The notes under the pieces are model-generated. The model was given only the letters and a program-made list of their open reading frames with translations, was not told the DNA's origin and made no database searches. The position numbers and the translations under genes are program-made. From Chiloscyllium plagiosum (lineage: Eukaryota), in contig NC_057719.1 in the NCBI RefSeq assembly GCF_004010195.1, forward strand, positions 19,874,623-19,920,800: DNA of 46,178 nt, written 5' to 3'. The first letter of the stretch is position 1, and each line of letters starts with the position of its first letter. Shown here in pieces: positions 363 to 43,090 of the stretch.

Positions 363-456
363 AGTCGAGAGTGTGGTGCTGGAAAAGCACAGCAGGCCAG
401 GCTGCATCCGAGGAGCAGGAGAATCGATGTTTCAGGCAAAAGCCTTAATCAGGAAT
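363..456 (-). mobile_element. PLE family A (Neptune-like) pseudo-LTR fragment with degenerate hammerhead (423-455)
   Basis: Reverse complement matches the 3' end at 13607-13690; core mutated to CUGAUUA. Confidence 0.85.
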
Positions 457-869
457 CAATGACCATTCTTCAGGGAAGAACGTTGACTCGACAGTTTTCG
501 GTCCAGATTTGCTGCCATACCTGTAGAGTTTCTCCAACAATTTCTGCTTTTATTACTCACCTGCTCTTACATTGAGCTTTTCCTGTTATCTCTAATATCA
601 AATTGCTGTGATTTGCCAGATGAAATAGCTATCCAAATTAGTTGGGATTGTCTCAGAATTATGAAGATCATTGTCATGTTACACCAATAGAATTCTGATT
701 GCAATTTAACTGCCTTCTGAATGAGGAGAGCCCCCAAGGTTTCCTCCTCAGGTCAGCAGCAAAGTACTGAGGGAGTCAGAAATCAAGATGTTTTCTATTG
801 TTACAAGGTGGGACACAGTTCTTCAGCTCTCTAGTTGGGTTGAAACAAGTTGGTAGCTAATAGGAAAAT

Positions 870-1112
870 TAGAATCCCTCCAGTGTGGAAACAGGCCCTT
901 CAGCCCAACAAGTCCACACTGACCATCAAAGAGTAACCCACCCAGACCCATTTCGCTCTGACTAATGCACCTAACACTGTGGGCAATTTAGTATGGCCAA
1001 TTGACCTGGCCTGCACATCTTTGGACTGTGAAAGTACCTGAAGGAAACCCACGTGGACACAGGGAGAATGTGCAAACTTCAAACAGACAGTCACCTGAGG
1101 CTGGAATTGGAT
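870..1112 (-). mobile_element. HE1-type SINE, 5'-truncated
   Basis: Colinear with the fuller copies at 17199-17508 and 37800-38136. Confidence 0.85.
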
Positions 1113-1881
1113 AACCACTCAGCGACCGTACCAAAAACAAAAGAGAATCTTCATCCCATCTCCCCATTAACCAATAAAAGTGACACTAGAGGTCCTCAAG
1201 ACACTCTTCAATTGCGTTCCTTGTATGAATAACACTTTAACAAGGCTTGTTGTACCTCTGAATAAGAAATTAACTTGTTGGTCAAGTCTCCTGCCAGAAA
1301 TCCACATCAAGTTGAAATCACGGATGCATACAACCATATGGAGTTATGAACATAAGAACATAAAATCTAGGAGCAGGAGTAGGCCGTACAGCCCTTCGAG
1401 CCTGCTTCACTGTTCATGGCTGATCTTTTCATGGACTCAGATCCACTAACCCTCCTTGCTCCATAATCCTTAATTCCTTTATTGTTCAAAAGAAATCTAC
1501 CTTAGCTTTGAAAACATTTATTGAAGTAGCGTCAACTACTTCACTGAGCAAGGAATTCCATAGATATACAACCCTCTGAGTGAAGAAGTTCCTTCTCAAT
1601 TCAGTCCTAAATCTGCTCCCTCTAATTTTGAGGCTATGCCCTCTTTTCTGAGTTTCACCTGCCAGTGGAAACATCCTCTCTAATTCTGTCTCATCTATTC
1701 CCTTCATAATTTTGTATGTTTCCATAAGATCCCCCCTCAATCTTCTGAATTTCAATGGATATAGTCCCAATCTATGCAGTCTGTCCTAATAGGAGAAAGT
1801 GAGAACTGCAGATGCTGGAGAAGAGTTGAAAAATGTGGTGCTGGAAAAACACAGCAGGCCAGGCAGCATCCGAGGAAGAGA

Positions 1882-1915
1882 ATCGACGTTTCGGGCGTAA
1901 GCCCTTCTTCAGGAA
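1882..1915 (-). ncRNA. Minimal type-I hammerhead ribozyme motif (family A, intact core)
   Basis: RC reads UUC-CUGAAGA-A-GGGC-UUAC-GCCC-GAAA-CG-UC^GAU. Confidence 0.85.
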
Positions 1916-2029
1916 TGAGGCTGGTGTGCCAAGCAGGCTGAGATAAAAGGCAGGGGTGAGGGAATTTGGGGGAGGGGCACTGGGAATACGATAGGTGGAA
2001 GGAGGTGAGGGTGAGGGTGATAGGCCGGA

Positions 2030-2097
2030 NNNNNNNNNNNNNNNNNNNNNNNNNNNNNNNNNNNNNNNNNNNNNNNNNNNNNNNNNNNNNNNNNNNN
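2030..2097. other. Assembly gap
   Basis: Run of N. Confidence 1.
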
Positions 2098-2284
2098 TCT
2101 CAACCCCCAGATTCAGCACCGCCCTCTTGACCTGCAATCTTCTTCCCGACCTCTCCGCCCCCACCCCCTCTCCCGCCTATCACTCTCACCGTCACCTCCT
2201 TCCACCTATCGTATTCCCAGTGCCCGTCCCCCAAATTCCCTGAACCCTACCTTTAATCTCAGCCCGCTTGGCACACCAGCCTCA

Positions 2285-2318
2285 TTCCTGAAGAAGGGTT
2301 TATGCCCGAAACGTCGAT
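2285..2318 (+). ncRNA. Minimal hammerhead ribozyme motif (family A)
   Basis: UUC-CUGAAGA-A-GGGU-UUAU-GCCC-GAAA-CG-UC^GAU. Confidence 0.85.
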
Positions 2319-3031: not shown

Positions 3032-3100
3032 GAAGCTGTGCTTTTCTAGCAACACACTCTCAACTCTGATCTTCAGCATCTGCAGGCCTCACTGTTTCCT
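3032..3100 (+). mobile_element. 69-bp PLE family A 3'-terminal stub with 14-bp TSD
   Basis: gctgtgcttttctagc...cagcatctgcaggcctcactgtttcct matches the pLTR end plus tail; TSD aaccaatcttctat (3018-3031) / aaccaattatctat (3101-3114). Confidence 0.8.
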
Positions 3101-4712
3101 AACCAATTATCTATCCATGCTAATACTTTACTCGTAATGTCATGCATCCTTATTTTTTGCAGCAGCTTCTTTTGCAGCACCTTGTCGAAGGACTTTTGGA
3201 AATCTAGGTACACCACATCCACTGGGCCCCCATTGTCTATCTTGCTCGTAATGTCTTCATAGAATACCAAAAGATTTGTCAAGCATAACAGGCCTTTCAT
3301 GAACCCATGCTGTGTCTGCCCAATGGGACAATTTCTATCAAGATGCCTTGCTATTTCTTCCTTGATAATAGACTCAAGCATCTTCCCTGCCACAGGGGTT
3401 AAGCTAACCGGTCTGTAATTCCCCATCATTTGCCTACCATAATTTTTAAACAGTGGCATCACAATTAGTGTTTTCCAGTCTCCTGCGACTGCCCCAGAGT
3501 CCAGCAAATTTTGGAAAATTACTGCCAGCGCACGTGCTATTTCTTCCGCCATCTCTTAGAGTACCATGGTGCATTCCATTAGGGCCAGGAGACTTATCAA
3601 TCCGTAGCTCCATTAGCTTGCCCAACACTACCTCTTCCGTAATAATGATTGTTTCCAGGTCCTCACCTGCCTTTGTCTCTTTGTCAATTACTGGCATGTT
3701 ATGAGTGTGAAGACCGATACAAAATACCTGTTCAATGTCTCGGCCATTTCATCATATCCCATATCTAAATTCCTCTTCTCATCATGTAAAGGGCCAATGT
3801 TTACTTTAGCCACTCTTTTTCATTTTATATATTTATAGAAACCTTTGCTATCTGTCTTTATATTCTATACTAGGTTTTTCTCATGTTCTATCTTACTTTT
3901 CTTTATAGCTCTTTTTGAGGCTTTCTGTTGAATTTTAAGGTTTTCCTAATCTTCTAGCTTCATGCTGCTTTTGGCCATTTTGTATGCCTTCTCTTTCAAT
4001 TTGATAGCTTCCCTTATTTCCTTAAACATCCATGGTAGATTACTCCTTTTCTTACAGTCCTTCCTTTTCACTGGAATATACTTTTGCTGAGAGATTTGAA
4101 AAATTACTTTGAAAGTCCTCCACTGCTCGTCAATTGTCCCACCATAAAATCTTTGTTTCCAGTATACTTTAGCCAAGTCCTCCTTCATTCTATTGTAGTC
4201 CCCCTTATTCAAGCATAGGATCCTGGTATTGGATTTTATCTTCACATTCTGTATTCTAAATTCACCCATACTGTGATCATTCCTTACAAGAGGGTCCCCA
4301 ACTATGAGGTCATTAATTATTCCTGTCTCATTACACAGGTCCAGATCTAGGGTACCTTGCTCCATCATCATTTCCATTACATTATGCTAAAACTAAATTA
4401 CCACAGATACACTCAACAAACTCCTCCTTAAAGCTACCCTGACTGAGGTGGTTCAACCAACTTGCATGTAGATTAAAATCCCCCATGATAATTGCCGTAC
4501 TATTTTTACAGGCATTAGTTATTTATTTGTTTATTGCCTGGTACAATGTGATGGCCTATAGACTACACCTATTAGTAACTTGTTCCTCTTAGAATTTCTA
4601 ATTTCCACCCAAATGGATTCAACCTTATTCTACACAGAACCTACATCATCTGTTAGCACTGCCCTGATGTCGTTTTTGAATATCAGAGCTGCACCACCTC
4701 CCTTACTTTCCT

Positions 4713-5734
4713 ATGCCCTCCAACGCATCTCATCTACATCCCGCACCTCCGCCCTCAAACCCCACCCCTCCAAACGTAACAAGGACAGAACCCCCCCCTG
4801 GTCCTCACCTTCCACCCTACCAACCTTCGCATAAACTGTATCATCTGCCGACATTTTCGCCAGCTCCAAATGTACCCCACCATCAGGGATATTTTTCCCT
4901 CCCCACCTCTTTCTGCTTTCCGCAATGACCGTTCCCTCCGTGACTACCAGGACAGGTTCACGCCACCCAACAACCCATCCTCCCATCCTGGCACCTTCCC
5001 CTGCCACCACAGGAATTTTAAAACCTGCGCCCATACCTCCTCCCTCACCTCCATCTAAGATCCTAAAGGAGCCTTCCACATCCATCAAAGTTTCACCTGC
5101 ACATCCAGCAATATCATTTATTGTATTCGTTGCTCCCGATGCGGTCTCCTCTACATTGGGGAGACTGGATACCTTCTTGCAGAGCACTTTAGGGAACATC
5201 TCCGGGACACTCGCACCAATCAACCCCACTGCCCCATGGCCCAACATTTCAAACCCCCCTCCCACTCAGTCGAGGACATGCAGGTCCTGGGCCTCATCCA
5301 CTGCCACTCCCTCGCCACCTGACGCCTGGACGAAGAATGCCTCATCTTCTGCCTTGGAACACTTCAACCCCAGGGCATCAATGTGGGCTTCACCAGTTTC
5401 CTCATTTCCCCTACCCCCACCTTACCCCAGTTCCAAACTTGCAGCTCAGCACCATCCTAATGACCTGTCCTACCTGCCAATCTCCCTTCCCACCTATCCA
5501 CTCCACCCTCCTCTCTGACCTGTCACCTTCATCCCCATCTCAACCACCTATTGTACTCTTTGCTACCTCCTCCCCAGCCCCACACCCCCCCTTCACCCCC
5601 ACCATTTATCTCTCCACCGTGGAGGCACCCTGCCTCCATTCCTGACAAAGGACGTTTGCCCGAAACATCGATTTTCCTGCTCCTCGGATGCTGCCTGACC
5701 TGCTGTGCTTTTCCAGCACCATTCTAATCTAGAC
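4713..5734 (+). mobile_element. 5'-truncated Neptune-like PLE (Cys-rich linker, GIY-YIG endonuclease, C-rich 3' UTR, degenerate hammerhead 5639-5672)
   Basis: Translation gives GTFPCHHRNFKTC, then NIIYCIRCSRCGLLYIGETG...FREH and EECLIFCLGTLQPQGINV; colinear with 12660-13547 RC. Confidence 0.92.
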
Positions 5735-6122
5735 TCCTGTCCTTTCAAATAGTCTGGCATTGAGTTGGAGGAAGCCATTCAGTCTATCATGTCTGTGTCT
5801 GTACTTTGAAAGAACTTGCCAGTCGATTGAATTATTAAAAAGAAGAGAATGGCACTGTAAAATGTTCCAGCTCTGGTTCTTTGCATGCTGTAGTATGATT
5901 TCAGCATTGTTTATTATGCATGATAATTGAATAATGCAGTTCCTTATTCTGGGAGCTAAATAGCACAGTTGTATTTAAGAGCAACTCAGAGTATTTTTGT
6001 AAGTCACTTTAGCTGCATTATTGAAGAGATTTGTTTTAACCTGAGAAATTTTGCTGACTGGGTGGAGTTTTAAAGAACTGTTTTCAGTATATTGATGAAT
6101 CTGAAGTCTAGAAATATAAATT

Positions 6123-9616: not shown

Positions 9617-9716
9617 ATAGGCAAAAGTGAGGACTGCAGATGCTGGAAACCAGAGTTTAGATTAGTGTGGTGCTGGAGAAGCACAGCAGGTCAGGCAGTA
9701 TTCTAGGTGCAGGAAA

Positions 9717-9750
9717 ATCAACATTTCAGGCAAAAGCCCTTCATCAGGAA
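9717..9750 (-). ncRNA. Minimal hammerhead motif (family A)
   Basis: RC UUC-CUGAUGA-A-GGGC-UUUU-GCCU-GAAA-UG-UU^GAU. Confidence 0.75.
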
Positions 9751-9789
9751 GAGAGGCAGAAAGCCTCCAGGGTGGAGAGGGGAGGGGAA

Positions 9790-12562
9790 ATGAGGAAACT
9801 GGTGAAGTCCACATTGATGCCCTGGGGTTGTAGGGTTCTGAGGCAGAAGATGAGAATTTCTTCCTCCAGGCGTCAGGTGGTGAGGGAGCAGTGGTGGAGG
9901 AGGCCCAGGACCTGCATGTCCTCGGCAGAGTGGGAGGGGGAGTTGAAATGTTGGGCCACAGGGCGGTGGGGTTGATTGGTGCAAGTGTACCGGAGATGTT
10001 CCCGAAAGTGCTCAGGACCTGCATGTCCTCAGCAGAGTGTCCTCAGCAATGTAGAGGAGACCGCATCGGAATCAACGGATACAATAAATGACATTGGTGG
10101 ATGTGCAGGTGAAACTTTGATGGATGTGGAAGGCTCCTTTAGGGCCTTGGATGATGGTGAGGGAGGAGGTGTGGGCGCAGGTTTTGCAATTCCTGTGGTG
10201 GTAGGGGAAGGTGCAGGATGGGGGGATGGTTTGTTGGGGGTGTGTGGATCTGGCCAGGTAGTCACGGAGGGAACGGTCTTTGCAGAAAGTGGAAAGGGGT
10301 GGGGAGGGAAATATATTCCTGGTGGTAGGGTCTGTTTGGAGGTGGCGGAAATGTTGGAGGATGATGCGGTTAATGCAAAAGTTGGTAGGGTGGAAAGTGA
10401 GGACTGGAGGGTTCTGTCCTTGTTACGGTTGGAGGGGTGGGGTTCAAGGGCGGAGGTGCGGGATGTGGATGAGATGCATTGGAGGGCATCTTCAACCACG
10501 TGGCAAGGGAAATTGCAGTCTCTAGAGAAGGAGACCATTTGGTGTGTTCTGTGGTGGAACTGGTCCTCCTGGGATCAGATACGGCAGAGGCAGAGGAATT
10601 GGGAATATGGGATGACATTTTTGCAGGAGTTAGGGTGGGAAGAGGTGTAATCCAGGTAGCTGTGGGAATCGGTGGGTTTGTAAAAAATGAATGAGAGTGT
10701 CGGTGGAAGGGTACTGTTGGGGACATCGGGAGAGGAAGAAACTGATGGCTTGAGGCCCTGGTCTTGGCAGATGGAGATGTAGAGAGATGGGATATCCATG
10801 GTGAAGATCAGGCGTTGGGAGCCGGGGAAACGGAAGTCTTGGAGGAGGTGGAGGGCATGGGCAGTGTCTCGAACATATGTGGGGAGTTCCTGGACTAGGG
10901 GGGAATAGGACAGTATCGAGGTAGGTGGAAATGAGTTCAGTGGGGCAGGAACATGCTGAGACAATGGGTCGGCCGGAGTGATCAGGCTTGTGGATCTTGG
11001 GAAGGAGGGAGAACCAGGCAGTGCGGGGTTCCCGGACTATGAGGTTGGAAGCTGTGGGTAGGAGATCTCCTGAAGTGATGAGGTTCTGTATGGTCTGGGA
11101 GATGATGGTTTGGTGATAGGGGTTGGGGTCATGGTGGAGGGGGCAGTAGGAGGAGGTGTCTTCGAGTTGGCGTCTGGCTTCAGTGGTGTAGAGATCAGTG
11201 CGCCAGACTACCACTGCGACCCCTTTATCCGCTGGCTTGATGGTGAGATTGGGATTGGAGCAGAGGGAGTGGAGGGCTGCGCGTTGTGAGGGTCAGAGGT
11301 TGGGGTGGAGGAGGAGGGTAGACAGTTTGAAGCAGTTAATGTCTCGGAAATGAAGAGGTCGAGGGCAGGTAATAGGCCACCGTGGGCTGTCTAGGTGGAT
11401 GGAGTGTGTTGGAGGCGAGTAAAGGGGTCCTCGGAAGATGGGCGGGAGTCCTGATTGTAAAAGTAAGCTTGGTGGCGGAGGAGGCGGAAGAAGTGTTCGC
11501 CGTCACAGCGTGTATTAAATTTATTGATGAGTGGATGGAGGGGGATGAAGGTAAGGCCTTTGCTAAGGACTGTTCATTCGTCCTCAGTGAGGTGAACGTC
11601 TGGGGGGATGGTGAAAACTCGGCAGGGCTGGGAGCTAGTACCTGGTGTAGGTATGGAGCTGGGAGTGGGGACAGGGCCTGTAACTGGAGTGGGTGTGGTG
11701 GTGGGGGAAATGGGGGTGGAGTTATGAGCAGGGGTGGTGTTCCCCTCAGGGTTCTGGAGCGGCAGGGATGGTGACAGTGGGATCTGTGGGGGGCATGTCA
11801 GCAGAATGCAGGTGAATGGCATTGGTGGGGGTGGAAGATGTGGCAAAAGTCGCTGAACGTGTGACATCAGCGATGACGTTGGGGGCGGAAATTATGTCAC
11901 GTGTGGTGCATGAAGAATCATGAGGGGTGGAAGTGGTCATGATAGGGGCAGAAGTGATGTCATCAATCACCATGGGGATGGTAGCTGTACCAGCCACATG
12001 GCTAATGGGCGTCCAAGCAGTTCCAGAGGCCGGGGGAATCTTCTGGAATGTTTGAGGAGCGCTGGTTATGGAGGTGGGTGTATAAATGTTTATTGTAATT
12101 ACAGTTTTTGATATTTGAGATGGTGTTGAAATACTGTTTGTTGAGAGTATGAATTCTTCTTAAAATATAGTACAGATTGGGTTCTTTGCAGTTCTGAGAG
12201 AGTGTGGCCCTCAGCTGACGCAGGGCTGACTGTAGAGAGGTTAGGTGCTGGCGCATTGCTGCGAGTGTGAAGGGGAGGATCCGGAAGGAGAAGTGTTTCT
12301 GGTGGTTTTTGAATCTGTAGTCTGTACTGTTTGTCCTGTTCGGATCCGAACTATGCTGGGTTGAATGTAGTCCGGAGTCCATGCGGGATCAGTTGGTTAT
12401 GGAGCAGGCACTGAGGAAGCAAATGTCGCTGTGGTAACGATTCTGTTTCAGTACATGGTTGAAGAGCTTCAGGGCAGAGGAGATGACCTGGGGGTTTCAG
12501 TGAGAGAGACACTCACTGAGATTCTTGTGGAGAGAGGAGGAGAGCTTCTTCAAGGTAGGCAT
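9790..12562 (-). pseudogene. Disrupted PLE polyprotein ORF (N-terminal domain, T/P/S-rich linker, RT with internal deletion near 10690, GIY-YIG)
   Basis: ATG at 12562 (MPTLKKLSS..., homologous to 20324); frameshifts and stops; RT motifs B-C are missing. Confidence 0.85.
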
Positions 12563-12697
12563 CCTTGCTAGAGGGTTCACAGTAAGGTTAAAATCAACTA
12601 GGCAAAAGTGAGGACTGCAGATGCTGGAAACCAGAGTTTAGATTAGTGTGGTGCTGGAAAAACACAGCAGTTCAGGCAGCATCCGAGGAGCTGAAAA

Positions 12698-12731
12698 ATC
12701 GATGTTTCGGGCAAAAGCCCTTCATCAGGAA
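12698..12731 (-). ncRNA. Minimal hammerhead motif (family A)
   Basis: RC UUC-CUGAUGA-A-GGGC-UUUU-GCCC-GAAA-CA-UC^GAU. Confidence 0.8.
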
Positions 12732-13606
12732 GAGAGGCAGGAAGCCTCCAGAGTGGAGAGTAAATGGGGGGGCTGCTGGGGAGAAGGTAGCATAAAGTAC
12801 AATAGGTGAATGGGGGTGGAGATGGAGGTGATAGGTCAGAGGGGAAGGGTGGAGCAGATAGTTGGGAAGGGAGATTGGCAGGTAGGACAGGTCATGGGGA
12901 CAGTGCTGAGCTGGAAGGTTGGAACTGGGGTAAGGTGGGGGAAGGGGAAAAGAGGAAACTGGTGAAGTCCACATTGATGCCCTGGGGTTGAAGGGTTCTG
13001 AGGCGGAAGATGAGACGTTCTTCGTCCAGGCGTTGTGTGGTGAGGGAGCGGCGGTGGATGAGGCCCAAGACCTGCATGTCCTCGGCAGAGTGGGAGTTGG
13101 GCCACGGGGCGGTGGGGTTGATTGGTGCGGGTGTCCCGGAGATGTTCCCTAGAGCGTTCTGCTAGGAGGCGTCCAGTCTCCCCGATGTAGAGGAGACTGC
13201 ATTGGGAACAACGGATACAATAAATGATATTGGTGGATGTGCAGGTGAAACTTTGATGGATGTGGAAGGCTCCTTTGGGGCCTTGGATGGTGGTGAGGGA
13301 GGAGGTGTGGGTGCAGGTTTTGCAATTCCTGCAGTGGCAGGGGAGGGTGCCAGGATGGGGGGGGGGAGGGGGGGGGTGGTTTGTTGGGGGGTGTGGACCT
13401 GACCAGGTAGTCATGGAGGGAATGGTCTTTGCGGAAAGCGGAAAGGGGTGGGGAGGGAAATATATCTCTGATGGTGAGGTCCGTTTGGAGGTGGCGGAAA
13501 TGTCGACAGATGATGTGGTTAATGCGAAAGTTGGTGAGGTGGAAAGTGTCCTCCTCCCCAGGCCACCCCCCATTTATCTCTCTACTCTGGAGGCTTCCTG
13601 CCTCTA

Positions 13607-13640
13607 TTCCTGATGAAGGGCTTTTGCCCGAAACGTCGAT
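13607..13640 (+). ncRNA. Minimal hammerhead motif (family A, intact core)
   Basis: UUC-CUGAUGA-A-GGGC-UUUU-GCCC-GAAA-CG-UC^GAU. Confidence 0.87.
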
Positions 13641-13960: not shown

Positions 13961-13964
13961 AAAT

Positions 13965-14626: not shown

Positions 14627-14666
14627 TCAGATGTTTCGTTACCATACTAGGTAACATCTTCAGTCA
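14627..14666 (-). ncRNA. Minimal hammerhead motif (family E, intact core)
   Basis: RC UGA-CUGAAGA-U-GUUACC-UAGUAU-GGUAAC-GAAA-CA-UC^UGA. Confidence 0.8.
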
Positions 14667-14693
14667 GCCTCTGGACTGGCTTCATCTGGAGGC

Positions 14694-14733
14694 TCACTGA
14701 AAATGTTACCTAGTATGGTGACGAAACATCTGA
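14694..14733 (+). ncRNA. Minimal hammerhead motif (family E, G8 mutated)
   Basis: UCA-CUGAAAA-U-GUUACC-UAGUAU-GGUGAC-GAAA-CA-UC^UGA; stem I UCA/UGA. Confidence 0.7.
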
Positions 14734-18330: not shown

Positions 18331-18334
18331 GCCA

Positions 18335-18595
18335 TAAGTCACATGACACCAGGTCATAGTCCAATAGGTTTATTTGAAATCACAAGCTTTTGGATGAAGT
18401 GGTTTATCATTTCAGCTGCATAACACTGTAATCATTTGCTATAAATACTGTGCCTTGTGGCCCTGCTTCATAGCCACCTGATGAAGGAGCCACACTTTGA
18501 AAGCTAGCGCCTCCAAATAAACCTGGTGGACTATAACCTGGTGTTTTGTGATTTTTAACTTTGTCCATCCCAGTCCAAAACCGGCTACTCCAAAT
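18335..18595. mobile_element. PLE family C inverted pLTR remnant with degenerate hammerhead (18475-18509, +)
   Basis: Minus arm 18335-18392, plus arm with TATAAA, CAC-CUGAUGA...GAAA-GC-UA^GCG, AATAAA and tail; matches 36810-36997. Confidence 0.82.
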
Positions 18596-20158
18596 AATGA
18601 TGGTGATGACAGTATCGGACAGAGAGAGAGGCTTGCGCTTTCTCTTGATCAAGATAAAGTTCGATTAGCACTTACATAGCAAAATGTTATCTGGCTTGAT
18701 TAAACCAAGGTATAGATTTTGCAGTGGAAGACTTTATTGCTCTTTTATCTTACTTGGATAACCCATGTTAATTTAAAACCTTTTACTCACTGTGAACAAT
18801 AATGCAAATAGTCTGCTAATTATATGAAAGTATTAATTCCATCTGGTGGTTTGTAGACCCATCTCTATTAGTAGCAGGCATGAAGACACAGGTTTTGTGG
18901 CAGGCTATGCTATTTCAATGTCTATTGGTTATGCTTTTTTTTCTAAGTCCTATGTTTCTCATTAAACTGGAAACACAGTAAAATTAGTTCAATGAAAATA
19001 GCTGGCTGCAGGTCTGATTTAAAGACCAAATTGATATCGTCTTCCTATTTATTAAATGTAATGTTATGGAATTGAAGGTGAGTAGTAGCATGTGTTACAG
19101 TACTTATGGCTGACAAACCTCATCTTTATAATTAATACATTAAAAGAGGAAGATACAAGACAAGACTTTACTTGTCCCACTCATGATTGCCTTACAGGTC
19201 AGACGAATGGAGCTTAAATCTCATTAATTGGTCACGCATTCGAGAGGAAATAAGTCTTAGTGTCGCACATGTTGACACCTGCAGATGCAATTAGATTTTT
19301 GACTCCAGTATTTTTCTCTGCTCCGTGTCAGAAAATATGTCAAAATCAGCGATGTTGAGCTGCAGACCAATAAGAGCATGTCCCAGATAATTTATAGCCT
19401 TGCCTTCAGCCCTGTTGCTTGTAAATAATGCTTTATGTGAGTGTCAGTTCCTGTAATAGTAGGATCAGCGATTTATAGCAATTTGTTGTAAGGGCTTCAA
19501 ATTCCTTAATAAAGAATAAAGCTCTCTTTGGAAGGAACTCACTTATTGTTTTGTTTATCTCAATGCATTTGGTTCTGTCCAGATGTGCACAGCTAATTCC
19601 AGGAATAACACAAACACTCAAAGATGGAAAGGGTCCTTAAAACATTCCTGGAAAAATACATTGCAAGTATTATTAAATTCTGGTCTTATCATCTTACTTG
19701 TAAATTTAATATAGAAATTTAATATAGAAATAGACACCCGGACCCAAGCAACCCAACCACCCCGTGGCTCAACACTTCAACTCCCCCTCCCACTCCACCA
19801 AGGACATGCAGGTCCTTGGACTCCTCCATCGCCAGACCATAGCAACACGACAGCTGGAGGAAGAGTGCCTCATCTTCCGCCTAGGAACCCTCCTACCACA
19901 AGGGATGAACTCAGATTTCTCCAGTTTCCTCATTTCCCCTCCCCCCACCTTGCCTCAGTCCCAACCCTCGAACTCAGCACCACCTTCCTAACCTGCAATC
20001 TTCTTCCTGACCTCTCCGCCCCCACCCCCACTCCGGCCTATCACCCTCACCTTATCACCCTCACCTTAACCTCCTTCCACCTATCACATTTCCAACGCCC
20101 CTCCCCCAAGTCCCTCCTCCCTACCTTTTATCTTATCCTGCTTGGCACACTTTCCTCA

Positions 20159-20192
20159 TTCCTGAAGAAGGGCTCATGCCTGAAACGTCGAT
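20159..20192 (+). ncRNA. Minimal hammerhead motif (family A, upstream pLTR)
   Basis: UUC-CUGAAGA-A-GGGC-UCAU-GCCU-GAAA-CG-UC^GAU; the downstream copy at 23511-23544 has GAAA>AAAA. Confidence 0.82.
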
Positions 20193-20323
20193 TCTCCTGC
20201 TCCTTGGATGCTGCCTGACCTGCTGCGCTTTTCCAGCAACACATTTTCAACTCTAACCTCCAGCATCTGCAGTCCTCACTTTCTCCTAGAAGATTTTAAC
20301 CTACTGCAAATCCTCTCACAAGG

Positions 20324-23002
20324 ATGCCTTCCTTGAAGAAGCTCTCTTCCTCCCTCTACAAGGGTTTCAGTGAGTCCCTCTCTCACTGCACACCCCAGGT
20401 CATCTCCTCTGCCCAGAAGCTCTTCAGCCACGTTCTCAAACATACTCGCTACCACAGCCACATCTCCTTCCTCAGCACCTGCCTACGGAACCGACTGACC
20501 CCACACGGACTCTGGACTACGTTCAGACCAACAAAATTTGGACCCAACCAGGACAACCAGTACCTACAACAAATCCGAAGCCTCCAGCAACAGACCTCCC
20601 TCCAGATCCTCCGTTCCACGCTTGCAGCCATGCGCTGCTACCTACATTCCCTGCAATTAGCCCTACTCCAGCTCAGGACAACACTCTCACAGACCTGCAA
20701 AGGACCTCTACTGTTCTTCATCCACAGAAGAATCCATACACTAAACAAACAGTTCTTCTTAGCCATATCAGAAATTAAAGACAGTAAGTACCAAAAACTT
20801 TCATGTACTTACCCCCACACTCTGGGTTCCTCAACTGTTCCAGAATCTTCCATCGGCCTCCGGAATCACTCTAGCGCCATTAACAACGCGGCCGCTGCAG
20901 CGCCGCCGCAAACCATGACGTCACTTCCGCCCCTACCGACCATGCAGCCTCCGCGATCACTGCCCAGACAACCGCCTCCACGATCGCCAGAAAGACCATT
21001 GCCGACAGATTCGCAGGCTCCGCGGGCTCCACGGCTATCGCAAACAGCACCTTTCTGCCATCGCCACAGCCACTTCCGCCCCCTGGGTTGCCGTCGCTGC
21101 AGCCACTTCTGCCCCCAGTGACATCACTCACCTGCACAACAACCATGCCGCATGCGTCACCGCCCCCACGCCGATCTCCATCCGCACGCCTAACCCCGCC
21201 CCCACGCCGATCTCCGTTCGCACACGTAACCCCGCCCCCCCGCCGGTCTCCGTCCCCGCCCCGATTCCTGCCCCCACGCCTCACCCCGCCCCCCCTCCCA
21301 GCTCCACACTTAACCCTGGCCCCACTCCCAGCTCCAGCCCCACACCAAGTCCTAGCTCCCAGCCCTGCCGTATTTTCACCATCCCTCAAGACCTCCCCCT
21401 CTCTGAGGATGAAAGATCAGTCCTCGGCAGAGGCCTCACCTTCATTCCCCTACCTCTCTGATTAACGAGTTCAACACGGGGCGAGATATCGAACAATTCT
21501 TCCGCCGCCTTCGCCTCCGCGCCTACTTCTTCAACCAGGACTCTCGCCCACCCTCTGACGACCCCTTCTCCTGCCTCCAACACACCCCATCCACCTGGAC
21601 ACCCTGTGCTGGCCTCTTACCTGCCCTCGATCTCTTCATAGCCAACTGCCGCCGCGACATTTCCTGTCTCAACCTCTCCATCCCTCTCACCCACTCCAAC
21701 CTCTCACTCTCGGAACATGCAGCCTTCCACTCCCTCTGTTCCAACCCCAACCTCACTATCAAACCGGCAGAAAAGGGAGGCGCAGTAGTAGTTTGGTGCA
21801 CCGATCTTTACACCGCTGAGGCTAAACGCCAGCTTGCAGACACCTCCTCCTACTGACCCTTGACCATGACCCCACCTCCCACCACCAAACCATCATCTCC
21901 CAGACCATCCATAACCTCATCACCTCAAACCATCATCTCCCATCCACCGCCTCCAACCTCATAGTCCCACAACCCCGCACCGCCCGTTTCTACCTCCTGC
22001 CCAAAATCCACAAACCTGACTGGCTCGGCCAACCCATTGTCTCAGCCGGCTCCTGCCCTACTGAACTCATCTCTGCATACCTCGACACGGTCCTGTCCCC
22101 CTTAGTTCAAGAACTCGCCACCTACGTTCGGGACAACACCCACGCCCTCCACCTCCTCCATGATTTTCGCTTCCCTGGTCCCCAATGCCTTATCTTCACC
22201 ATGGACATCCAGTCCCTGTACACCTCCATCCCCCATCACGAAGGACTCAAAGCCCTCCGCTTCTTCCTTTCCCGCCGCACCAACCAGTACCCTTCCACTG
22301 AGACCCTCCTTCGACTGACTGAACTGGTCCTCACTCTGAACAACTTCTCTTTCCAATCCACCCACTTCCTCCAAACCAAAGGAGTAGCCATGGGCACCCG
22401 CATGGGCCCCAGCTATGCCTGCCTCTTCGTAGGATATGTGGAACAGTCTATGTGGCACACTGGCACCACCCCCCCACATTTTCCTCCGCTACATGGATAA
22501 CTGTATCGGCGCTGCCTCGTGCTTCCACGAGGAGGTTGAACAGTTCATCCACTTTACCAACACCTTCCACCCTGACCTCAAATTTAACTGGACCATCTCA
22601 GACTCCTCCCTCCCCTTCCTAGACCTCTCCATTTCTATCTCGGGCGACCGAATCAACACGGACATTTACTATAAACAAAGCGACTCCTACAGCTACCTAG
22701 ATTACACCTCCTCCCACCCTACCCACTGTAAAAATGCCATCCCATATTCCCAATTCCTTCGTCTCCGCCGCATCTGCTCCCAGGAGGACCAGTTCCAATA
22801 CCGAACAATCCAGATGGCCTCCTTCTTCAAAGACCGCAATTTCCCCTCAGATGTGGTCGACGATGCTCTCCACCGCATCTCCTCCACTTCCCGCTCCTCC
22901 ACCCTTGTGCCACACCCCTCCAATTGCCACCAGGACAGAACCCCACTGGTCCTCACCTATCACCCCACCAACCTCCATATACATCGTATCATCCATTGTC
23001 AT
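20324..23002 (+). pseudogene. Disrupted PLE polyprotein (N-terminal domain, low-complexity linker, Penelope-type RT; endonuclease lost in the gap)
   Basis: HISFLSTCLRNRLTPHGL; LSEDERSVLGRGLTFIP; IKPAEKGGAVVVW; YLLPKIHK; FTMDIQSLYTSIPH; QTKGVAMGTRMGPSYACLFVG; catalytic motif degraded to YMDN; LPFLDL; stops and frameshifts. Confidence 0.9.
21150..21300 (+). repeat. ~36-bp GC-rich tandem repeat in the PLE linker
   Basis: Three copies of (a/c)ccgccccc(a/c)cgccg(a/g)tctcc(a/g)t. Confidence 0.75.
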
Positions 23003-23369
23003 NNNNNNNNNNNNNNNNNNNNNNNNNNNNNNNNNNNNNNNNNNNNNNNNNNNNNNNNNNNNNNNNNNNNNNNNNNNNNNNNNNNNNNNNNNNNNNNNNN
23101 NNNNNNNNNNNNNNNNNNNNNNNNNNNNNNNNNNNNNNNNNNNNNNNNNNNNNNNNNNNNNNNNNNNNNNNNNNNNNNNNNNNNNNNNNNNNNNNNNNNN
23201 NNNNNNNNNNNNNNNNNNNNNNNNNNNNNNNNNNNNNNNNNNNNNNNNNNNNNNNNNNNNNNNNNNNNNNNNNNNNNNNNNNNNNNNNNNNNNNNNNNNN
23301 NNNNNNNNNNNNNNNNNNNNNNNNNNNNNNNNNNNNNNNNNNNNNNNNNNNNNNNNNNNNNNNNNNNNN
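23003..23369. other. Assembly gap
   Basis: Run of N. Confidence 1.
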
Positions 23370-24412
23370 GCCCCCACCCCCACTCCGGCCTATCACCTTC
23401 ACCTTATCACCCTCACCTTAACCTCCTTCCACTTATCGCATTTCCAACGTCCCTCCCCCAAGTCCCTCCTCCCTACCTTTTATCTTAGCCTGCTTGGCAC
23501 ACTTTCCTCATACCTGAAGAAGGGCTCATGCCCAAAACGTTGATTTTCCTGCTCCTCAGATGCTGCCTGGCCTGCTGCGCTTTTCCAGCAACACATTTTC
23601 AATCTGTTGTTAATGACTACTTCTCAGGAAATCACTTCCTGTTTTTCTATGTGAGATATTGAGTTTTGAAAATTCAAATTTTCGCACAATGTAGATTGCA
23701 CATTATTTCTGTAAGTTGGAGTAGTAGAGTGGCAAGAATTGAACAAAAGTATGGATATTCCTTGATACCCGATTTATTGAAATCGGGCACGTCACTTTCC
23801 TAATGCAACTGTGAAGATATTTGGTCTAAAAATTTTGAATTCATTGCAATATTTGCAAGGCGACAAGAATATTGAAATATGTGATGTTTCTTATTCTGCA
23901 ATTTGATGCTAACAGTTAAGTCTTATGTTTTAAAATACATACCAAGGCAATTCTGGTACATTTCATGCTTCTCCTTTCATACTTTTCAATAAAATGGTAT
24001 TTTCGCTTCGAGGTGAACCATCAAAATACAATCAGACATTAATCGAAATCATTTAGAAATGTAGAAAAAAATCAAATTTAATTCTGGTTGCTTACTTCAC
24101 TTGCAGTGTTGCTAACAAAAGCAAGTCACGAACCAACAGTTGAAACTCGCAAAACATTTCAAAACCTGTGATCAAGATAGAAATTCATCTGAATCATTAG
24201 GAGGTCATAATCACATTGGGACAGTTACGTATACCTTCTTGCTTAGTATCATGAAATTCAGATAAATGTGACAATGGCATTTGCAAAATTGAATATCTTT
24301 TAAGTATATGTATTGTTGCATGATGTGATGAGTTTAGCTGAGATGTGTTTTATCTCTTGAGGCTCAGTAAATTTTATCCAAGTGAATGGGCTGCCACTGA
24401 ACCAAGTCTATT

Positions 24413-30500: not shown

Positions 30501-30513
30501 GGAAATTTTTGTT

Positions 30514-30553
30514 GCAAACGTTTCGTCCCCTGTCTAGGTGACATCCTCAGTGC
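30514..30553 (-). ncRNA. Minimal hammerhead motif (family D, intact)
   Basis: Exact RC of 31005-31044. Confidence 0.87.
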
Positions 30554-31004
30554 TTGGGAGCCTCCTGTGAAGCGCTTCTGTGGTGTTTCCTCCGGCATTT
30601 ATAGTGGCCTGTCCCTGTCGCTTCCGGTTGTCAGTTTCAGCTGTCCGCTGTAGTGGCCGGTATATTGGGTCCAGGTCGATGTGTTTGTTGATGGAGTTTG
30701 TGGATGAGTGCCATACTTCTAGGAATTCCCTGGCTGTTCTTTGTTTGGCTTGCCCTATAATGGTAGTGTTGTCCCAGTCGAATTCATGTTGCTTGTCATC
30801 TGCGTGTGTGGCTACTAGGGATAGCTGGTCGTGGCGTTTCCATGAACAAAACTAATGTAGTGTACAAAATCCTATGCAAGGACTGCACAAAACACTATAT
30901 AGGACAAACAGGAAGACAGCTAACAATCCGCATCCATGAACATCAACTAGCCACTATAAATGCTGGAGGAAACACCACAGAAGCGCTTCACAGGAGGCTC
31001 CCAA

Positions 31005-31044
31005 GCACTGAGGATGTCACCTAGACAGGGGACGAAACGTTTGC
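31005..31044 (+). ncRNA. Minimal hammerhead motif (family D, intact)
   Basis: GCA-CUGAGGA-U-GUCACCU-AGAC-AGGGGAC-GAAA-CG-UU^UGC; stem I GCA/UGC. Confidence 0.87.
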
Positions 31045-32187
31045 AACAAAAATTTCCAGCTCGGCGAACAGAACCACAACAACAAGCACCCGAGCTACAA
31101 ATCTTCACCCAAACTTTGAATATGAACAAATCAATGGGACACCTGTGGGCTCACACATCTCTGGGCTTACAGCAAAAGCAGTAATGCGAGGACTAGAACA
31201 AACAGCCCTCCCACAAATCCAATCCAAACTTTGCATCGGATACATAGACAACATTTTTGTAATAATTAAAGGAACAAAGATTGAGAGCACTCGACGGATT
31301 ATCAACACCATGCTCACAGGGATCAAATTTACCGAGAAAGGAAGAAATGAACAACCAACTCCCATTCCTGGCTGTGATGATAGAAAGAACAGAAGGGGAA
31401 TACACAACAACAAAAGTGTACAGAAAAGCCACACACATGGATCAGATCCTGAATTAGAATAGCAACCACCCAAACATATACAAGAGAAGCTGCATTGGGA
31501 CGCTGTTCAAAATGGCTACAACACACTACAGCACTGCTGACATATGAAGAGTCAAAGTAGAACACCTCTACAAACTCTTCGCCAAGAATGAATAACCCCA
31601 CAATTTCATCCGCAGATGGCTAGACATACAACGCGATGAGGACATGCCACCTAATATACTAACTACTCCACCTGATATAAAAACGGTCTCAGATCTGACA
31701 GCCAGACTTCTACCACCACTCGGGTTTATGACAACAAATAAACTGACAGGCACACTCAGACAACAACTCACCAGAACAAAAGACCCTATACCCATCATGT
31801 ACAGGACAAATGTGGTGTACAAGATTCCATGCAGGGACTGCACAAAACGCTATATAGGACAACTAGGCAGACAACTCGCCATCTGCATTCATGAACATCA
31901 ACTAGCCACTAAATGCTATTACTAGCCATCCTTAGTATTGATATGCACAGGTGACAAGGACCACAAATTTGACTGAGACAACACAATTGTAATAGGACAA
32001 GCCAAACAGAGGAAAGCCAGAAAATTCCTAGAAGCATGGCACTCATCCACAGACTCCATCAGTAAACACATTGAACTAGACCCAATATACCAACCACTGT
32101 AACTAACAACCGGAACCGCAACTTGAACCAACGTGAGCAAAACCAAATAAATTCCAACCGACACAGCGCTTCACAGGAGGCTACACA

Positions 32188-32226
32188 GCACTGAAGATGT
32201 CACCAGAAAGGGGACGAAATGTCTGC
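32188..32226 (+). ncRNA. Minimal hammerhead motif (family D, outer element)
   Basis: GCA-CUGAAGA-U-GUCACC-AGAAA-GGGGAC-GAAA-UG-UC^UGC. Confidence 0.8.
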
Positions 32227-35111: not shown

Positions 35112-35745
35112 AAATTCTTGTTGCCATCCAGCTGCATCTGTACAGGGAACACGATGCTTACCAAAATTGTCAGTTTGCTTCCTCTTCAAAGCATACAGCA
35201 ATCTTTTGAAACAGTTCTTTCTTACCTTAGTTCATAATTTAAATAAAAAACACAGAAATAGACAAAATTAAAAATCTCACAACTCCAGATTATAGTCCAA
35301 CAGGTTTATTTGGAAGTATTAGCTTTCAGAGTGCTGCTCCTACATCAGACAATTAGTTGGGCAGGATCATAAAACACAGAATTTACAGCAAAAGATCATA
35401 GTGTCATGCAACTGATAAGATATATTGAACACATCTAGATTGCTGTTACGTCTTTCATCCTTTAGAATGGGTTGCAGGTATCGATTCATTAATAGGTAAA
35501 TCTCAGAACTTCTTTCGAGTCTTTACTTAAAAAAAAGAGGTGACATCTCAGCTCAAACAATGCATTAAAGGTGTGAGGTTAGAGTCTGTTTGTGTTCCAA
35601 TCTTGACTCAGATTGGTTTTATTTCTAAAGTAGAAATTTATAAATGTCACATGGATTGACTGCCCGCAGATTGAGTGCTTTTTGAACAAAATAGAAAGTA
35701 TCTGCAAATACAAGTCTGCAAATGCAGATTCACCCTATTGACTTA

Positions 35746-35990
35746 TATGTGTGTGTGTGCGTACATGTGAGGGAGAGAGAGAAAGAAGAGTGAGAGAGAG
35801 AGAGACTGCGTGTGTGTGTGTGAGAGAGAAACAGTGAGTGTGTGTGTGTGTATGCGTGTGTGTAAGAGTGTGTGTATGTGCATGCTTGGTAGAGTGTGTG
35901 CATGAGTGTGACGAAGTATAAGCCTGCGAGAGGGTGTGTGCATGGGTGATAGCCTGTGGGGTGTATGTGTGTATGTGTCTGAGAGATATC
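35746..35990. repeat. Degenerate (GT)n/(GA)n tract, PLE 3' UTR on the minus arm
   Basis: Visible dinucleotide runs, mirrored at 36205-36465. Confidence 0.9.
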
Positions 35991-36204
35991 ACGTGTCTCT
36001 CAGACAGGGATGTTCCCTTCCAGTTGGGGAACACTTCAGTGGCCTCGAACATTCGGCTCCAGATCTTTGGGTGACCATCCTCCAATGTGGACTTCGGGAT
36101 ACGCAACAACAGAGTGGCTGAGCAGAGGCTGAAAGCCAAGTTCAGTACCCATGAGGGTGGCCTTAACCGGGACCTTGGGTTCATATCACACTACAGGTTA
36201 CCCC

Positions 36205-36465
36205 ACAACACTATACATTCTCACATACACACACACACACATAAGCACACATTCTTACATGCTCACACAAGCCCTCTCTCAAACACACTCTATCTCTCAG
36301 ACACACACATGAACACCCTACACACTCTCACCCATGCACGCACCCTTTCATAGGTTATACTCTGTCATACTCATGCATACACACACTCATACACTCATAT
36401 GCAGACAGTCACATGCGTACAAACACACACACACACTGTCTCCCTCACATGCACGCACACACACA
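36205..36465. repeat. Degenerate (CA)n tract, PLE 3' UTR on the plus arm
   Basis: Visible dinucleotide runs. Confidence 0.9.
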
Positions 36466-36876: not shown

Positions 36877-36911
36877 TACCTGATGAAGGAGCAGCGCTCT
36901 GAAAGGTCGTC
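36877..36911 (+). ncRNA. Minimal hammerhead motif (family C)
   Basis: UAC-CUGAUGA-A-GGAGC-AGC-GCUCU-GAAA-GG-UC^GUC; mutated mirror copy at 35317-35351. Confidence 0.75.
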
Positions 36912-40060: not shown

Positions 40061-40329
40061 AATATGAAAAGTGCCATAATGTCCCTGTCCTTCCCTGTTT
40101 TAAGTGAATAAAATGTTGACTTTTCCTGAAGGTTTTGATTCCCTACAAATGCTTGTTTTCTCATGAGCACAATTTGTTTCTGGACATATCTTCAAGATTA
40201 AACTCATATTCTGGTTCATGAGGTGAAGTGTTTTCTCAGTAGTCTCTCTAGCTTTGAAATAATGAGCAGTTCCCAATCTTCACATGGCTCTGTGATAAAG
40301 AAATAGATGCTCCACAGCTTTGACTGATT

Positions 40330-40486
40330 TAGAGTCATAGAGTCATAGAGATGTACAGCATGGAAACAGACCCTTCGGTCCAACCCGTCCAGGCCAACCA
40401 GATATCCCAACCCAATCTAGCCCACGTGCCAGCACCCGGCCCTCCAAACCCTTCCTATTCATATACCCATCCAAATGCCTCTTAAC
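40330..40486 (-). mobile_element. CR1 3'-terminal fragment
   Basis: (tagagtca)n tail and a close match to 45544-45706. Confidence 0.88.
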
Positions 40487-41387
40487 TTATGCTTAATATA
40501 AATCAAGGAAAACTGAAGAAATCGCATTCCTGTTAGTCTCATCGAGACAGCTGCTATTCCTTCATGAAGGTCTTTGCTGCTCTTTGTATTGAACTGCCAA
40601 AGATTGCAAAAGGGGAATAATTTGTAAAACTAGCTTGAATAACAGACCCATCAGCTAGTTTAAGTAGAGATCTGGTGCTAAATTGCAATGAAAGAGAGTT
40701 ATAATAAAGGTAAAGTCACCATAGCCCTCCTGGACCATATAGTTGCTCTCTTATTAGAGAGAGATCACTGATGGCAGTTTAACCTGAGAGTCAAAATGCT
40801 TGAGGTGAGGGGAGAGGTCAAGAAGGAAAATCCTGCCTTGCATTCTCAACCAGCTATCCAGCCACCTAAGCTAATATTCCAGAATACAAGTGCCATATGT
40901 GAGCAGTGCATTGCATTTTTGTTTTTATTTTGCTGCATTGCACATTTGTCAATCGTTTTATATTGGAACCTATAGTGAGCAAAATGGAGTCTGTGTGAGA
41001 AGGTTTTCTTACAGTTTATGTCACAAAGTGCCTGAAAAAGGAACTAAAAATGAGGGTTTTAGAATCAAGAAAGAATTCCAACAGATGTTGCTGGATGGGT
41101 TATCACATCTAAATCCCCATTAACATTCCCTGATTTCTTTGCTCTTGGAAACACAACTAGCTGACTTTGGATTATGGCTATACTATGAACTAAAATGGTA
41201 AACAGGTGTTGGATTTTGAAGGTTGATGTTAGTTTATGATTAGAAGTTATAGCTATTTCTCAAAATGAATTCAGTTCCTGAAATGAGTTAAATTGTTAAT
41301 AGTTTATATATAGCAAGCAATAGTACTTGGACACACACTTAGAATCTAGTACTTGCAACTGTATCTGAAGTTATACAAGACACTTCG

Positions 41388-41920
41388 TGTCATAAAGTCA
41401 TAGAGATATACATTACAGCAACAGATCCTTCGGTCCAACCCATCCATGCTGACCAGATATCTCAATCTAATCTAATCCCATTTGCCAGCATTTGGCCCAT
41501 ATCTCTCTAAACCCTTCCTAATCATATATCCATCCAGATGCCTTCTTCTGGCAGCTCATTCCAAACATGTACCATGCACTGCATAAAAAAATTGCCCAAC
41601 CAGGTCTCTTTTACATCTTTCCTTTCTCACCCTAAAACTATGCCCTCTTGTTCTGGACTCCCCTACCCCAGGGAAAAGACATTGTCTATTTATCCTATCC
41701 ATGCCCCTCATGATTTTATAAACCTTTATCAGGTTACCCCTTAGCCTCTGACGCTCCAGGGGAAAAAAAAAAACAGCTATTTAGCCTCTTCTTATAGCTC
41801 AAATCCTCCAAACCTGGCAACATCCTTGTAAATTTTTTCTGATCCCTTTCAAGTTTCACAATATGCTTCCAGTAGGAAGGAGACCAGAATTGCATGCAAT
41901 ATTCCAAAAATGGCCGAACT
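41388..41920 (-). mobile_element. CR1 3' fragment
   Basis: VRPFLEYCMQFWSPSYWKHIVKLE; colinear with 45545-46110. Confidence 0.9.
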
Positions 41921-41929
41921 GACACTTGT

Positions 41930-42490
41930 TAGATCTCAGTTGGTGTATCATGTACAATTCTGGATGCCACATTATAAAATCAATGTGAATACGTTGGAGA
42001 GAGTGCAGAAATGGTTTATAACAATATTTCCAAAAATGACAAACTTCATTTATGAGGATAGATTGGAGAGGTTGGGTCTAATCTCCTGAGAGAGAAGAAG
42101 GCTGAAAGGAGATTAGATAGAAGATTTCATAATTCTGAAAAGTCTGGATATAGCAGATAGAAAAAGAAAGCTTTAGCTGCTCATGAGAGGAGCAAAAATG
42201 TGAGACCATAGATTTAAAGTGATTTGCAAACAAAGCAAATTGGTTGTGAGAAAATACCATTGCATACAAGTGGCTTGAATCTGAAATGCACTGCTTGGAA
42301 GTGTAGTCAAGGCAGAATGGATCAAAGCATGCAAGAAGGCATTGGATGATTATTTGAATAGAAACCATGTGTAAGGGATTGTGGTTAAGGTGAATTGCAT
42401 TTTGTCATGATGCTGATTGGACAGATGGTAAGATATAATGGACCAAATGGCCTCTATCTGTACTGTTTCAATTCTGTGATTCTTTGATTT
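41930..42490 (+). mobile_element. Old CR1 3' fragment
   Basis: HVQFWMPHYKINVNTLERVQKWF..YEDRLERLGL..RRRLKGD. Confidence 0.75.
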
Positions 42491-42786
42491 CTCATAATAT
42501 ATTAGCTGTGGTTTAGTCAGCAGTACTCTCATCTAGAAAATGAAAGGTTATGGCTCAATTCACACTCCAGACTTGAGCACAAAGCCTAGTCTGACCCATT
42601 TGTGCAGTACAGAGCAAAAGCTACGCTGTCAGAAGTGTAGTGTTATGGATTAATATTAAACCCAGGTTCTGCCTGTCCTTTCAGGTCTCTGTAAAAGTTC
42701 CAATAGGATCATTTTAAAGAAAATCATGGCAGTTTATTTATATTTATATTTCAATTAGCATAATCAAAATGACAGATAATACCTTG

Positions 42787-43090
42787 ATTTGGCGATGCCA
42801 GTGTTGGACTGGAGTGTAAAAAGTTAAAAATCACACAACCCCCAGTTATCATCTAACAGGTTTACTTCGAAGCACTAACTTTCAGAGCGCTGCTCCATCA
42901 TCAGGTGGTTGTGGATTATAAGATCATAAGACACCGAATTTATAGCAAAAGTTTACAGTGTGATGTAACTGAAATTATATATTAAAAAAGACCTGGATTG
43001 TTTGTTAAATCTCTCATCTAAAAGTGCTCCAAAGGCTAGTGCTTCCAAATAAACCTGTTGGACTATAAACTGGTGTTGTGTGATTTTTAA
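42787..43090. mobile_element. PLE family C inverted pLTR remnant
   Basis: Minus arm with tail 42787-43020, plus arm 43023-43090; possible degenerate TSD agataataccttg / agatgatattttg. Confidence 0.85.
42873..42907 (-). ncRNA. Minimal hammerhead motif (family C)
   Basis: RC CAC-CUGAUGA-U-GGAGC-AGC-GCUCU-GAAA-GU-UA^GUG; stem I CAC/GUG. Confidence 0.8.

Follow-up and report, generated by a model that had tools for sequence, protein, structure and literature searches.

In a 46,178-nucleotide stretch of the genome of the shark Chiloscyllium plagiosum (assembly GCF_004010195.1, contig NC_057719.1, positions 19,874,623 to 19,920,800 of the forward strand; hereafter the window), 18 hammerhead motifs fall into four families, A, C, D and E. 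Judged from sequence, they are minimal type-I hammerheads in the terminal repeats (pseudo-long terminal repeats, pLTRs) of Penelope-like elements (PLEs). The ends of their insertions suggest how these elements are copied: most copies were probably reverse-transcribed from capped, sense, uncut RNA that begins at the hammerhead, and the genome holds at least 160,000 intact cores.

Copies begin at the 5′ edge of the hammerhead

In a 0.78-Mb genome sample, copies were recognised by the 3′ flank that runs from +7 to +56 behind the predicted cut, which gave 167 A-like, 55 C and 7 D copies, and stop rates were counted for the 101 A and 31 C copies with at least 90% identity and no N at the boundary. 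Among those reaching position −21, 52 of 69 in family A and 17 of 22 in family C (69 of 91 together) stop within −40 to −21, which places a wall at the 5′ edge of the hammerhead. Family A stops amount to 0.108 per base across −36 to −28 and to 0.006 per base further upstream (p = 3e-22). The cut itself shows no excess of ends in this sample, with a family A stop rate of 0.010 against 0.011 just before it (p = 1.0) and no stop among 31 family C copies. Because cut RNA would leave ends at the cut, the missing excess makes uncut RNA the likely source of the copies.

The transcript starts predicted from the wall lie at −32 in family A and −37 in family C. In the window, −32 corresponds to the first base of stem I at 20158 (+), where other genomic copies start and where we place the putative transcription start. 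Loose ends with unrelated flanks lie just before this base in 104 reads of run X21 and 95 contigs of run X16. The 39 copies that run 410 nt into the open reading frame (ORF) start within −37 to −25 in 19 cases, pass upstream in 16 and begin elsewhere in four, none of them at the cut. Molecule starts and ends do not pile up at any position in raw single-cell poly(A) reads, and a library of this kind cannot show cut ends. In some X16 and X2 contigs (window 19900–20700), positions between +30 and +230 are followed by the wall base at 20156–20159, in one contig with a single G in between; such additions are head-to-tail and start afresh at the wall.

Such a wall could also reflect splicing to an acceptor where stem I starts, as in Drosophila virilis, where an intron is reported to end at the 5′ end of helix I (PMC4209133). 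Here the wall lacks an AG, and solo copies have mutually unrelated upstream flanks (agreement 0.34–0.48). We rejected splicing as the cause because no upstream exon is shared and no AG is present, and find it scarcely credible. A structural block to reverse transcription was rejected as well, as it would stop synthesis at the 3′ side of a helix and not after copying through the helix.

An extra G and a promoter-like spacing

A G precedes the start in 8 of 9 intact family A copies that start at −32 and in 4 of 4 family C copies that start at −37. Counted by hand, the non-templated letter is G in 57, A in 27 and T in 16 of the first 100 of 17,743 listed cases in family A, and G in 67, T in 23 and A in 10 of the first 100 of 3,965 in family C. 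Solo copies that were not chosen for G carry it in 7 of 11 cases (p = 0.02). An untemplated G at the 5′ end has been attributed to copying of the cap (PMC3287187). Candidate promoter boxes stand 30–32 nt before the wall in both families: TATAAA at −67/−69 in family C (3 of 3 long copies) and a TTATC box at −62/−64 in family A (9 of 13 long copies). Literature searches, with subscription papers outside their coverage, turned up nothing published on PLE hammerheads of sharks, nor on a 5′ wall or a cap-derived G in PLE copies.

Copies end at two points in the tail

The 3′ ends form two peaks per family, 30–40 nt apart, which coincide with the known tail; in family A (tail at 20242–20291, +) they fall at about +55 to +65 and +95 to +104 from the cut. 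Solo units span ~93–131 bp and lie between target-site duplications (TSDs) of 9–14 nt. Of the copies that start at the wall, 33 of 52 in family A and 13 of 17 in family C lie next to a fold-back. This abundance of fold-backs is what one would expect if head-to-head copies arose by self-priming on an antisense template, with the wall as the 3′ end of an antisense RNA, and an antisense template has been proposed for the rotifer Penelope (PMC3846280). The wall, however, sits at the spacing of a sense-strand promoter and comes with the extra G, solo units without an inverted arm have the same wall, and PAc, a Poseidon element of Anolis, primes on sense RNA in vitro (PMC11167929). We consider an antisense origin very unlikely.

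The solo units raise a second possibility, namely that stubs of 90–140 bp form a self-propagating family, like short interspersed elements (SINEs), with an internal promoter and mobilisation in trans by the PLE protein, instead of being by-products that lead nowhere. Their TSDs and fixed ends fit this picture, as does depth in a DNA-like run, in which stubs exceed the ORF start ~100-fold, and an internal promoter is described for the Drosophila Penelope (PMC2377424). Yet every stub subfamily variant is also present in long copies, which end at the same tail points, and the stub does not include the candidate promoter box, which lies upstream. RNA reads, moreover, come from both strands, and 93% of them continue into unrelated sequence. 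An autonomous stub family is thus unlikely, and copying from capped, uncut element RNA remains our preferred reading.

Intact cores number at least 160,000

Exact patterns that demand the core, G10.1, C11.1, the palindrome and H17, and that leave the remaining pairs free, match at 129,905 + 30,930 = 160,835 places genome-wide, one exact core per 22 kb; reversed-pattern controls match at 14 + 4. A single family A motif occurs in 49,376 exact copies (control 0). A genome sample of 80 evenly chosen 10-kb stretches (contigs C1–C25, 778,671 non-N bases) holds 43 fully intact motifs, equivalent to ~196,000 genome-wide (95% range 142,000–265,000), and 155 copies in any state, equivalent to ~0.7 million and half the density of the window. 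Both estimates bear out the very large number that a first-pass annotation of the window had foreseen.

Reported counts of minimal PLE motifs are ~9,000 in Xenopus and ~4,000 in coelacanth (PMC4209133), against at least 160,835 exact cores here, found with different descriptors. Hammerheads more broadly are reported at >6,000 in Acropora and at 126,247 canonical motifs in axolotl (PMC7229834). The count here exceeds the axolotl figure, the highest hammerhead number among the papers compared, which comes from a far larger genome; descriptors differ, so this comparison is rough.

The motifs match the published minimal PLE hammerhead

We located all 18 motifs of the first-pass annotation at their coordinates and on the strands it implied. 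Its core pattern is unmutated in 13 of them, and a site-by-site table gives a single core mismatch at 423, 5639, 14694, 23511 and 35317. A strict descriptor without the palindrome (core, stem I of at least 2 bp and stem II of at least 3 bp) recognises 11 of the 18, whereas 200 dinucleotide shuffles of the window average 0.005; these shuffles and the reversed-pattern controls rule out a chance origin. The core, both stems and the palindromic tetramer are all kept in six motifs (1882, 2285, 13607, 20159, 30514 and 31005), and CpG is the site of most motif decay.

Across 58 copies, the extra base between positions 9 and 10.1 is A in 51 and T in 7, and the palindrome at 15.2–16.2 that takes the place of helix III is CG in 34, GC in 9, a CpG-decay variant in 13 and another sequence in 2, as annotated. 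Pair II.1 (G10.1–C11.1) is G–C in all families and kept in 0.96, and helices I and II are short with family-specific compensatory pairs. The annotated stems stand, with two details added: the third stem I pair of family A is mostly U.U (37 of 57 copies; U–A in 10), which leaves a weak helix I of 2 bp plus U.U, and stem II of family D has a purine mismatch at pair 4. Feature for feature, the motifs thus appear to match the published minimal PLE hammerhead, as the annotation had proposed, and their class is already known. Traits of the canonical Rfam type-I hammerhead are absent: there is no helix III, and no hammerhead family is among the Rfam matches in the window and six loci, which makes Rfam uninformative about this class.

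The published motif (PMC4209133) is described with the same CUGANGA consensus, extra base, G10.1–C11.1 pair, palindromic 15.2–16.2 and short helix I, likewise without helix III, and likewise occurs mostly solo or in opposite-strand pairs, with few copies in full elements. The commonest family here differs in having two contiguous stem I pairs plus U.U. The accessible text of that study includes no cartilaginous fish in its alignment and no mapping of copy ends.

Stems covary and the core is constrained

Pairing was counted from the core outwards in copies found by the core alone and sorted into families according to the 3′ flank (A 57, C 21, D 8, E 1); a MAFFT alignment across families misaligned D and E and was left unused. 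Within families against across families, pairing is 0.93/0.33, 0.95/0.34 and 0.75/0.38 at I.1 to I.3, 0.94/0.34, 0.97/0.18 and 0.71/0.29 at II.2 to II.4, and 0.62/0.32 at the palindrome. The annotated covariation between families is supported: pairing is family-specific, at 0.71–0.97 within and 0.18–0.38 across families at six of the seven positions, and D and E share 72% identity over 65 nt, so that about three lineages, not four, are independent.

Splits between subfamilies, defined by a minor letter in at least 15% and without counting CpG decay, were scored by hand in 61 family A copies chosen blind to the core. They fall on N7 and three of the four loop II columns, that is, on 4 of 5 free columns and 0 of 23 constrained ones (p = 2e-4). 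In family C (17 copies), loop II and H17 (A or U) are among the split positions, and the ribozyme tolerates such changes. This distribution shows that source elements keep the hammerhead core under selection. A young family A subfamily has a perfect stem I, with U–A for U.U (L038, L043, L052, L058 and L059).

Folding gives the hammerhead as minimum-energy structure in 1 of 4 natural monomers, the perfect-stem-I family A subfamily being the only one of the four tested to do so. Pairing of the tetramers contributes no more than −1.7 to −2.5 kcal/mol, and cofolding fails to give a double hammerhead in 4 of 4 cases. These energies weakly suggest that the ribozyme would need help, in agreement with the protein-dependent cleavage of PAc.

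The same data bear on the route that the first-pass annotation had favoured, routine cutting of tandem transcripts by dimeric hammerheads, with the cut, unit-length RNA as the template of copies. Conservation of both the core and the palindromic tetramer accords with it, the window has two partial tandems with same-strand motifs ~3 kb apart, and dimers of a Schistosoma motif are reported to cut weakly in vitro (PMC4209133). Against this, a same-strand partner with long upstream sequence lies within 5 kb of at most 4 of 106 A and 0 of 43 C sampled copies, the tetramer duplex is weak, the priming tail lies downstream of the cut, and the copies start at the hammerhead with no excess at the cut. 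As the main route, dimer cleavage of tandems does not agree with these findings, and we regard it as rather unlikely.

A model of PLE copying

In the reading that we favour, copying from capped and uncut RNA, the pLTR promoter, with a TATA-like box ~30 nt upstream, would have RNA polymerase II initiate at stem I or immediately before it. The element protein would prime reverse transcription internally at both tail ends, 55–100 nt downstream of the cut, where we observe the 3′ ends. PAc is reported to prime internally in vitro, with unprocessed RNA as the substrate and cleavage only in the presence of protein (PMC11167929). From the 5′-proximal tail, reverse transcription would run 90–140 nt to the cap and often copy it as an extra G, a plausible cause of the 5′ ends observed. 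The cDNA end may then join the target or fold back into a head-to-head palindrome, and would so give rise to the mass of solo stubs.

As the core is under selection in source elements, cleavage likely matters at another, rarer step. Copies that start at the wall lack the upstream box, so only copies that pass the box can likely become new sources. A minority of full-length RNAs might be cut as dimers with the help of protein and ligated into circles, from which more-than-unit copies would rebuild the upstream promoter; cleavage and ligation to a circle have been proposed before (PMC4209133). Such a route would supply promoter-bearing sources and would explain the selection on the core; we rate a circle step from a minority of full-length RNAs at a little less than an even chance. 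Read-through of older tandems would do the same. In families D and E the cut would, in addition, remove the cap together with the start codon.

Several points weigh against this model. The evidence on the start, the cap and cleavage is indirect, as it is on the circle step. The stop-rate count excludes 66 of 167 A and 24 of 55 C copies, which had identity below 90% or an N at the boundary, and the limit on ends at the cut comes from the 0.78-Mb sample. The 39 copies entering the ORF were ranked by score, so that copies starting at the cut are under-sampled, and 23 of the 39 places in another list of ORF-entering copies are missing from it. The window itself is atypical: 1 of its 16 motif-reaching copies starts at the wall, where the sample has 69 of 91 (p = 2e-7), and 15 of the 16 reach 88 nt or more upstream of the cut, compared with 22 of 91 sampled copies that pass the wall. 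Family D shows no wall in 7 copies, and the family A box is a non-canonical TATA. The excess of G in solo copies alone is modest; 25 of 42 G-started copies checked are fold-backs, in which the inverted arm may supply the G; and among five solos with a clear TSD, G is the last TSD base in three and lies outside the TSD in two. Lastly, the contrast between core and 3′ flank is marginal (0 of 23 against 8 of 50 columns, p = 0.05).

Insertions and host elements in the window

The 18 motifs represent ~11 insertions. Several are pairs of opposite-strand copies placed head-to-head (1882/2285, 14627/14694, 30514/31005 and 35317/36877, with partial partners for 18475, 32188 and 42873). The remainder are two partial tandems, one truncated copy and one solo stub. 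Partial copies absent from the earlier list lie at ~29132 (−), 43026–43090 (+) and 18336–18390 (−).

In family A, the solo stub (~370–459, −) begins with G and the first base of stem I and is headed by a decayed motif at 423..455 (−) with one core mismatch and a broken palindrome. Intact motifs at 1882..1915 (−, H17 at 1885, in an inverted arm) and 2285..2318 (+, H17 at 2315) stand head-to-head, and a decayed motif at 5639..5672 (+) lies at the 3′ end of a 5′-truncated copy (~4713–5736) with endonuclease remnants. The partial tandem at 9618..13548 (−) consists of an upstream endonuclease end and pLTR, a decayed reverse transcriptase (RT)–endonuclease ORF with a CxxCxxC linker and a downstream pLTR, and its pLTRs are identical at 145 of 160 positions. 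Its hammerheads keep the core and have lost the palindrome, by breakage at 12698..12731 (−, upstream pLTR) and by CpG decay at 9717..9750 (−, downstream pLTR). An intact motif at 13607..13640 (+, H17 at 13637) lies in the inverted 5′ arm at 13550–13709. The partial tandem at 19733..23602 (+) has an endonuclease end and pLTR, a decayed RT ORF with an N gap at ~23000–23370, and a second pLTR (218 of 231 positions identical); the upstream hammerhead at 20159..20192 (+, H17 at 20189) is intact, and the downstream one at 23511..23544 (+) is mutated at G12. In neither partial tandem are both motifs intact. At its distal end (20270–20290, +), the family A tail resembles a 3′ splice site, with a branch-like motif, a pyrimidine tract and TAG; this end lies ~35 nt before the likely ORF start, and no donor was identified. 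A proline-rich tandem repeat of 18/36 nt lies within the family A ORF at 21156–21341.

Family C motifs occupy 18475..18509 (+; core and palindrome intact, stem I broken, with a partial inverted arm at 18336–18390), 35317..35351 (−; one core mismatch) head-to-head with 36877..36911 (+; core intact, palindrome broken), and 42873..42907 (−; core intact, palindrome broken), whose partial partner at 43026–43090 (+) begins within the motif. The family has a (CA)n tract, a long 3′ untranslated region and, upstream of it at 35990..36230 (+), an endonuclease-like C-terminal remnant whose translation was read by eye and gave no profile hit; we take this remnant to resemble a PLE endonuclease. No reverse transcriptase sequence accompanies family C in the DNA analysed.

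Family D contributes two intact motifs, 30514..30553 (−) in an inverted arm with 99% identity to its partner 31005..31044 (+, H17 at 31041, TATAAA at −87), and one with a broken palindrome, 32188..32226 (+), at the end of an older copy (31146–32307) with RT and GIY-YIG-like remnants. The inverted partner of this older copy, at ~29132 (−), has lost the motif. The younger inverted pair (30476–31113) is nested centrally in the older one (29062–32307). Family E has two motifs in a head-to-head palindrome, 14627..14666 (−; core intact, stem I and palindrome broken) and 14694..14733 (+; G8 mutated); the PLE origin of this family is argued from its similarity to D. Across A9, the extra U and G10.1, 8 of 8 translated copies of families D and E read ATG, as does the motif at 14694; at 31014..31016 (+) this ATG is the likely start of the family D ORF, 28 nt before the cut, and in the 31005 copy, one of the eight translated, it is followed by an open frame of 50 codons.

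RT and GIY-YIG remnants adjoin families A and D (Pfam E-values 2e-5, 4e-5 and 7e-4, all below the curated cut-offs) and are also found by tblastn. The frame at 12836–13573 (−) holds the family A CxxCxxC linker, and a CX2-5CxxC linker before GIY-YIG is described as the mark of Neptune-type PLEs (PMC8557442), so by the linker criterion family A would be Neptune-type. No CxxCxxC was seen ahead of the endonuclease remnant in family D/E elements. Older hammerhead-like families (L038:1541, L046, L060, L065 and others) have other stem II lengths, with 14–15 nt between core boxes, and share part of the family A tail.

Other repeats surround these insertions. Decayed remnants of long interspersed elements (LINEs) with RT matches (Pfam RVT_1) lie at 3073–4386 and 44379–46176 (−), with related 3′ ends at 14251, 27355, 38437 and 41722; the two remnants are presumably CR1-like. 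A dispersed SINE-like repeat occurs at 1033, 17194–17535, 24415–24778, 34758 and 37797–38146. We assume that it is tRNA-derived; ARAGORN found no tRNA gene.

Discussion

The insertions agree with published PLE architecture (PMC3846280, PMC8557442) in their partial tandems, inverted 5′ pLTR and tail, in a similar TSD length, and in the TATA and Inr of the pLTRs. Those papers left the template strand open and favoured an antisense one, whereas the ends described here point to capped sense RNA. A close parallel is PAc (Frangieh et al. 2024, PMC11167929), whose ORF starts at stem II, with the ATG 26 nt before the cut against 28 in D/E, and which likewise has two internal 3′ end points, corresponding to a tail downstream of the cut, and an uncut RNA template. 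To that in vitro work on one element, the in vivo record of two putatively Neptune-type families (A and C) adds the 5′ wall and the extra G.

Non-LTR retrozymes (PMC7229834; bioRxiv 10.64898/2026.07.22.740005) are also type-I, PLE-linked and of very high copy number, and the survey in the latter source includes one cartilaginous fish. They are described as tandem arrays with canonical hammerheads and circular RNAs, in contrast to the dispersed solo or inverted stubs with minimal motifs seen here. No retrozyme-type head-to-tail array with a hammerhead per unit was found in the window, and a tandem context applies to at most 4 of 106 A and 0 of 43 C sampled copies.

With the motif class known, the value added lies in the count and in the insertion record as a test of PLE copying. 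PLE hammerhead activity in vitro is low, cleavage was dispensable for insertion in one study, and the template strand had been left undecided; hundreds of thousands of copies allow single-base statistics on the points at which reverse transcription starts and ends. It is possible, though we advance it tentatively, that this record reflects 10^5–10^6 independent reverse-transcription events in the most hammerhead-rich genome among the reports compared, that PLEs copy capped, sense, uncut RNA, and that the ribozyme gates no copies but the rare ones that derive from circles and rebuild the promoter. If true, the question of the PLE template strand would be settled.

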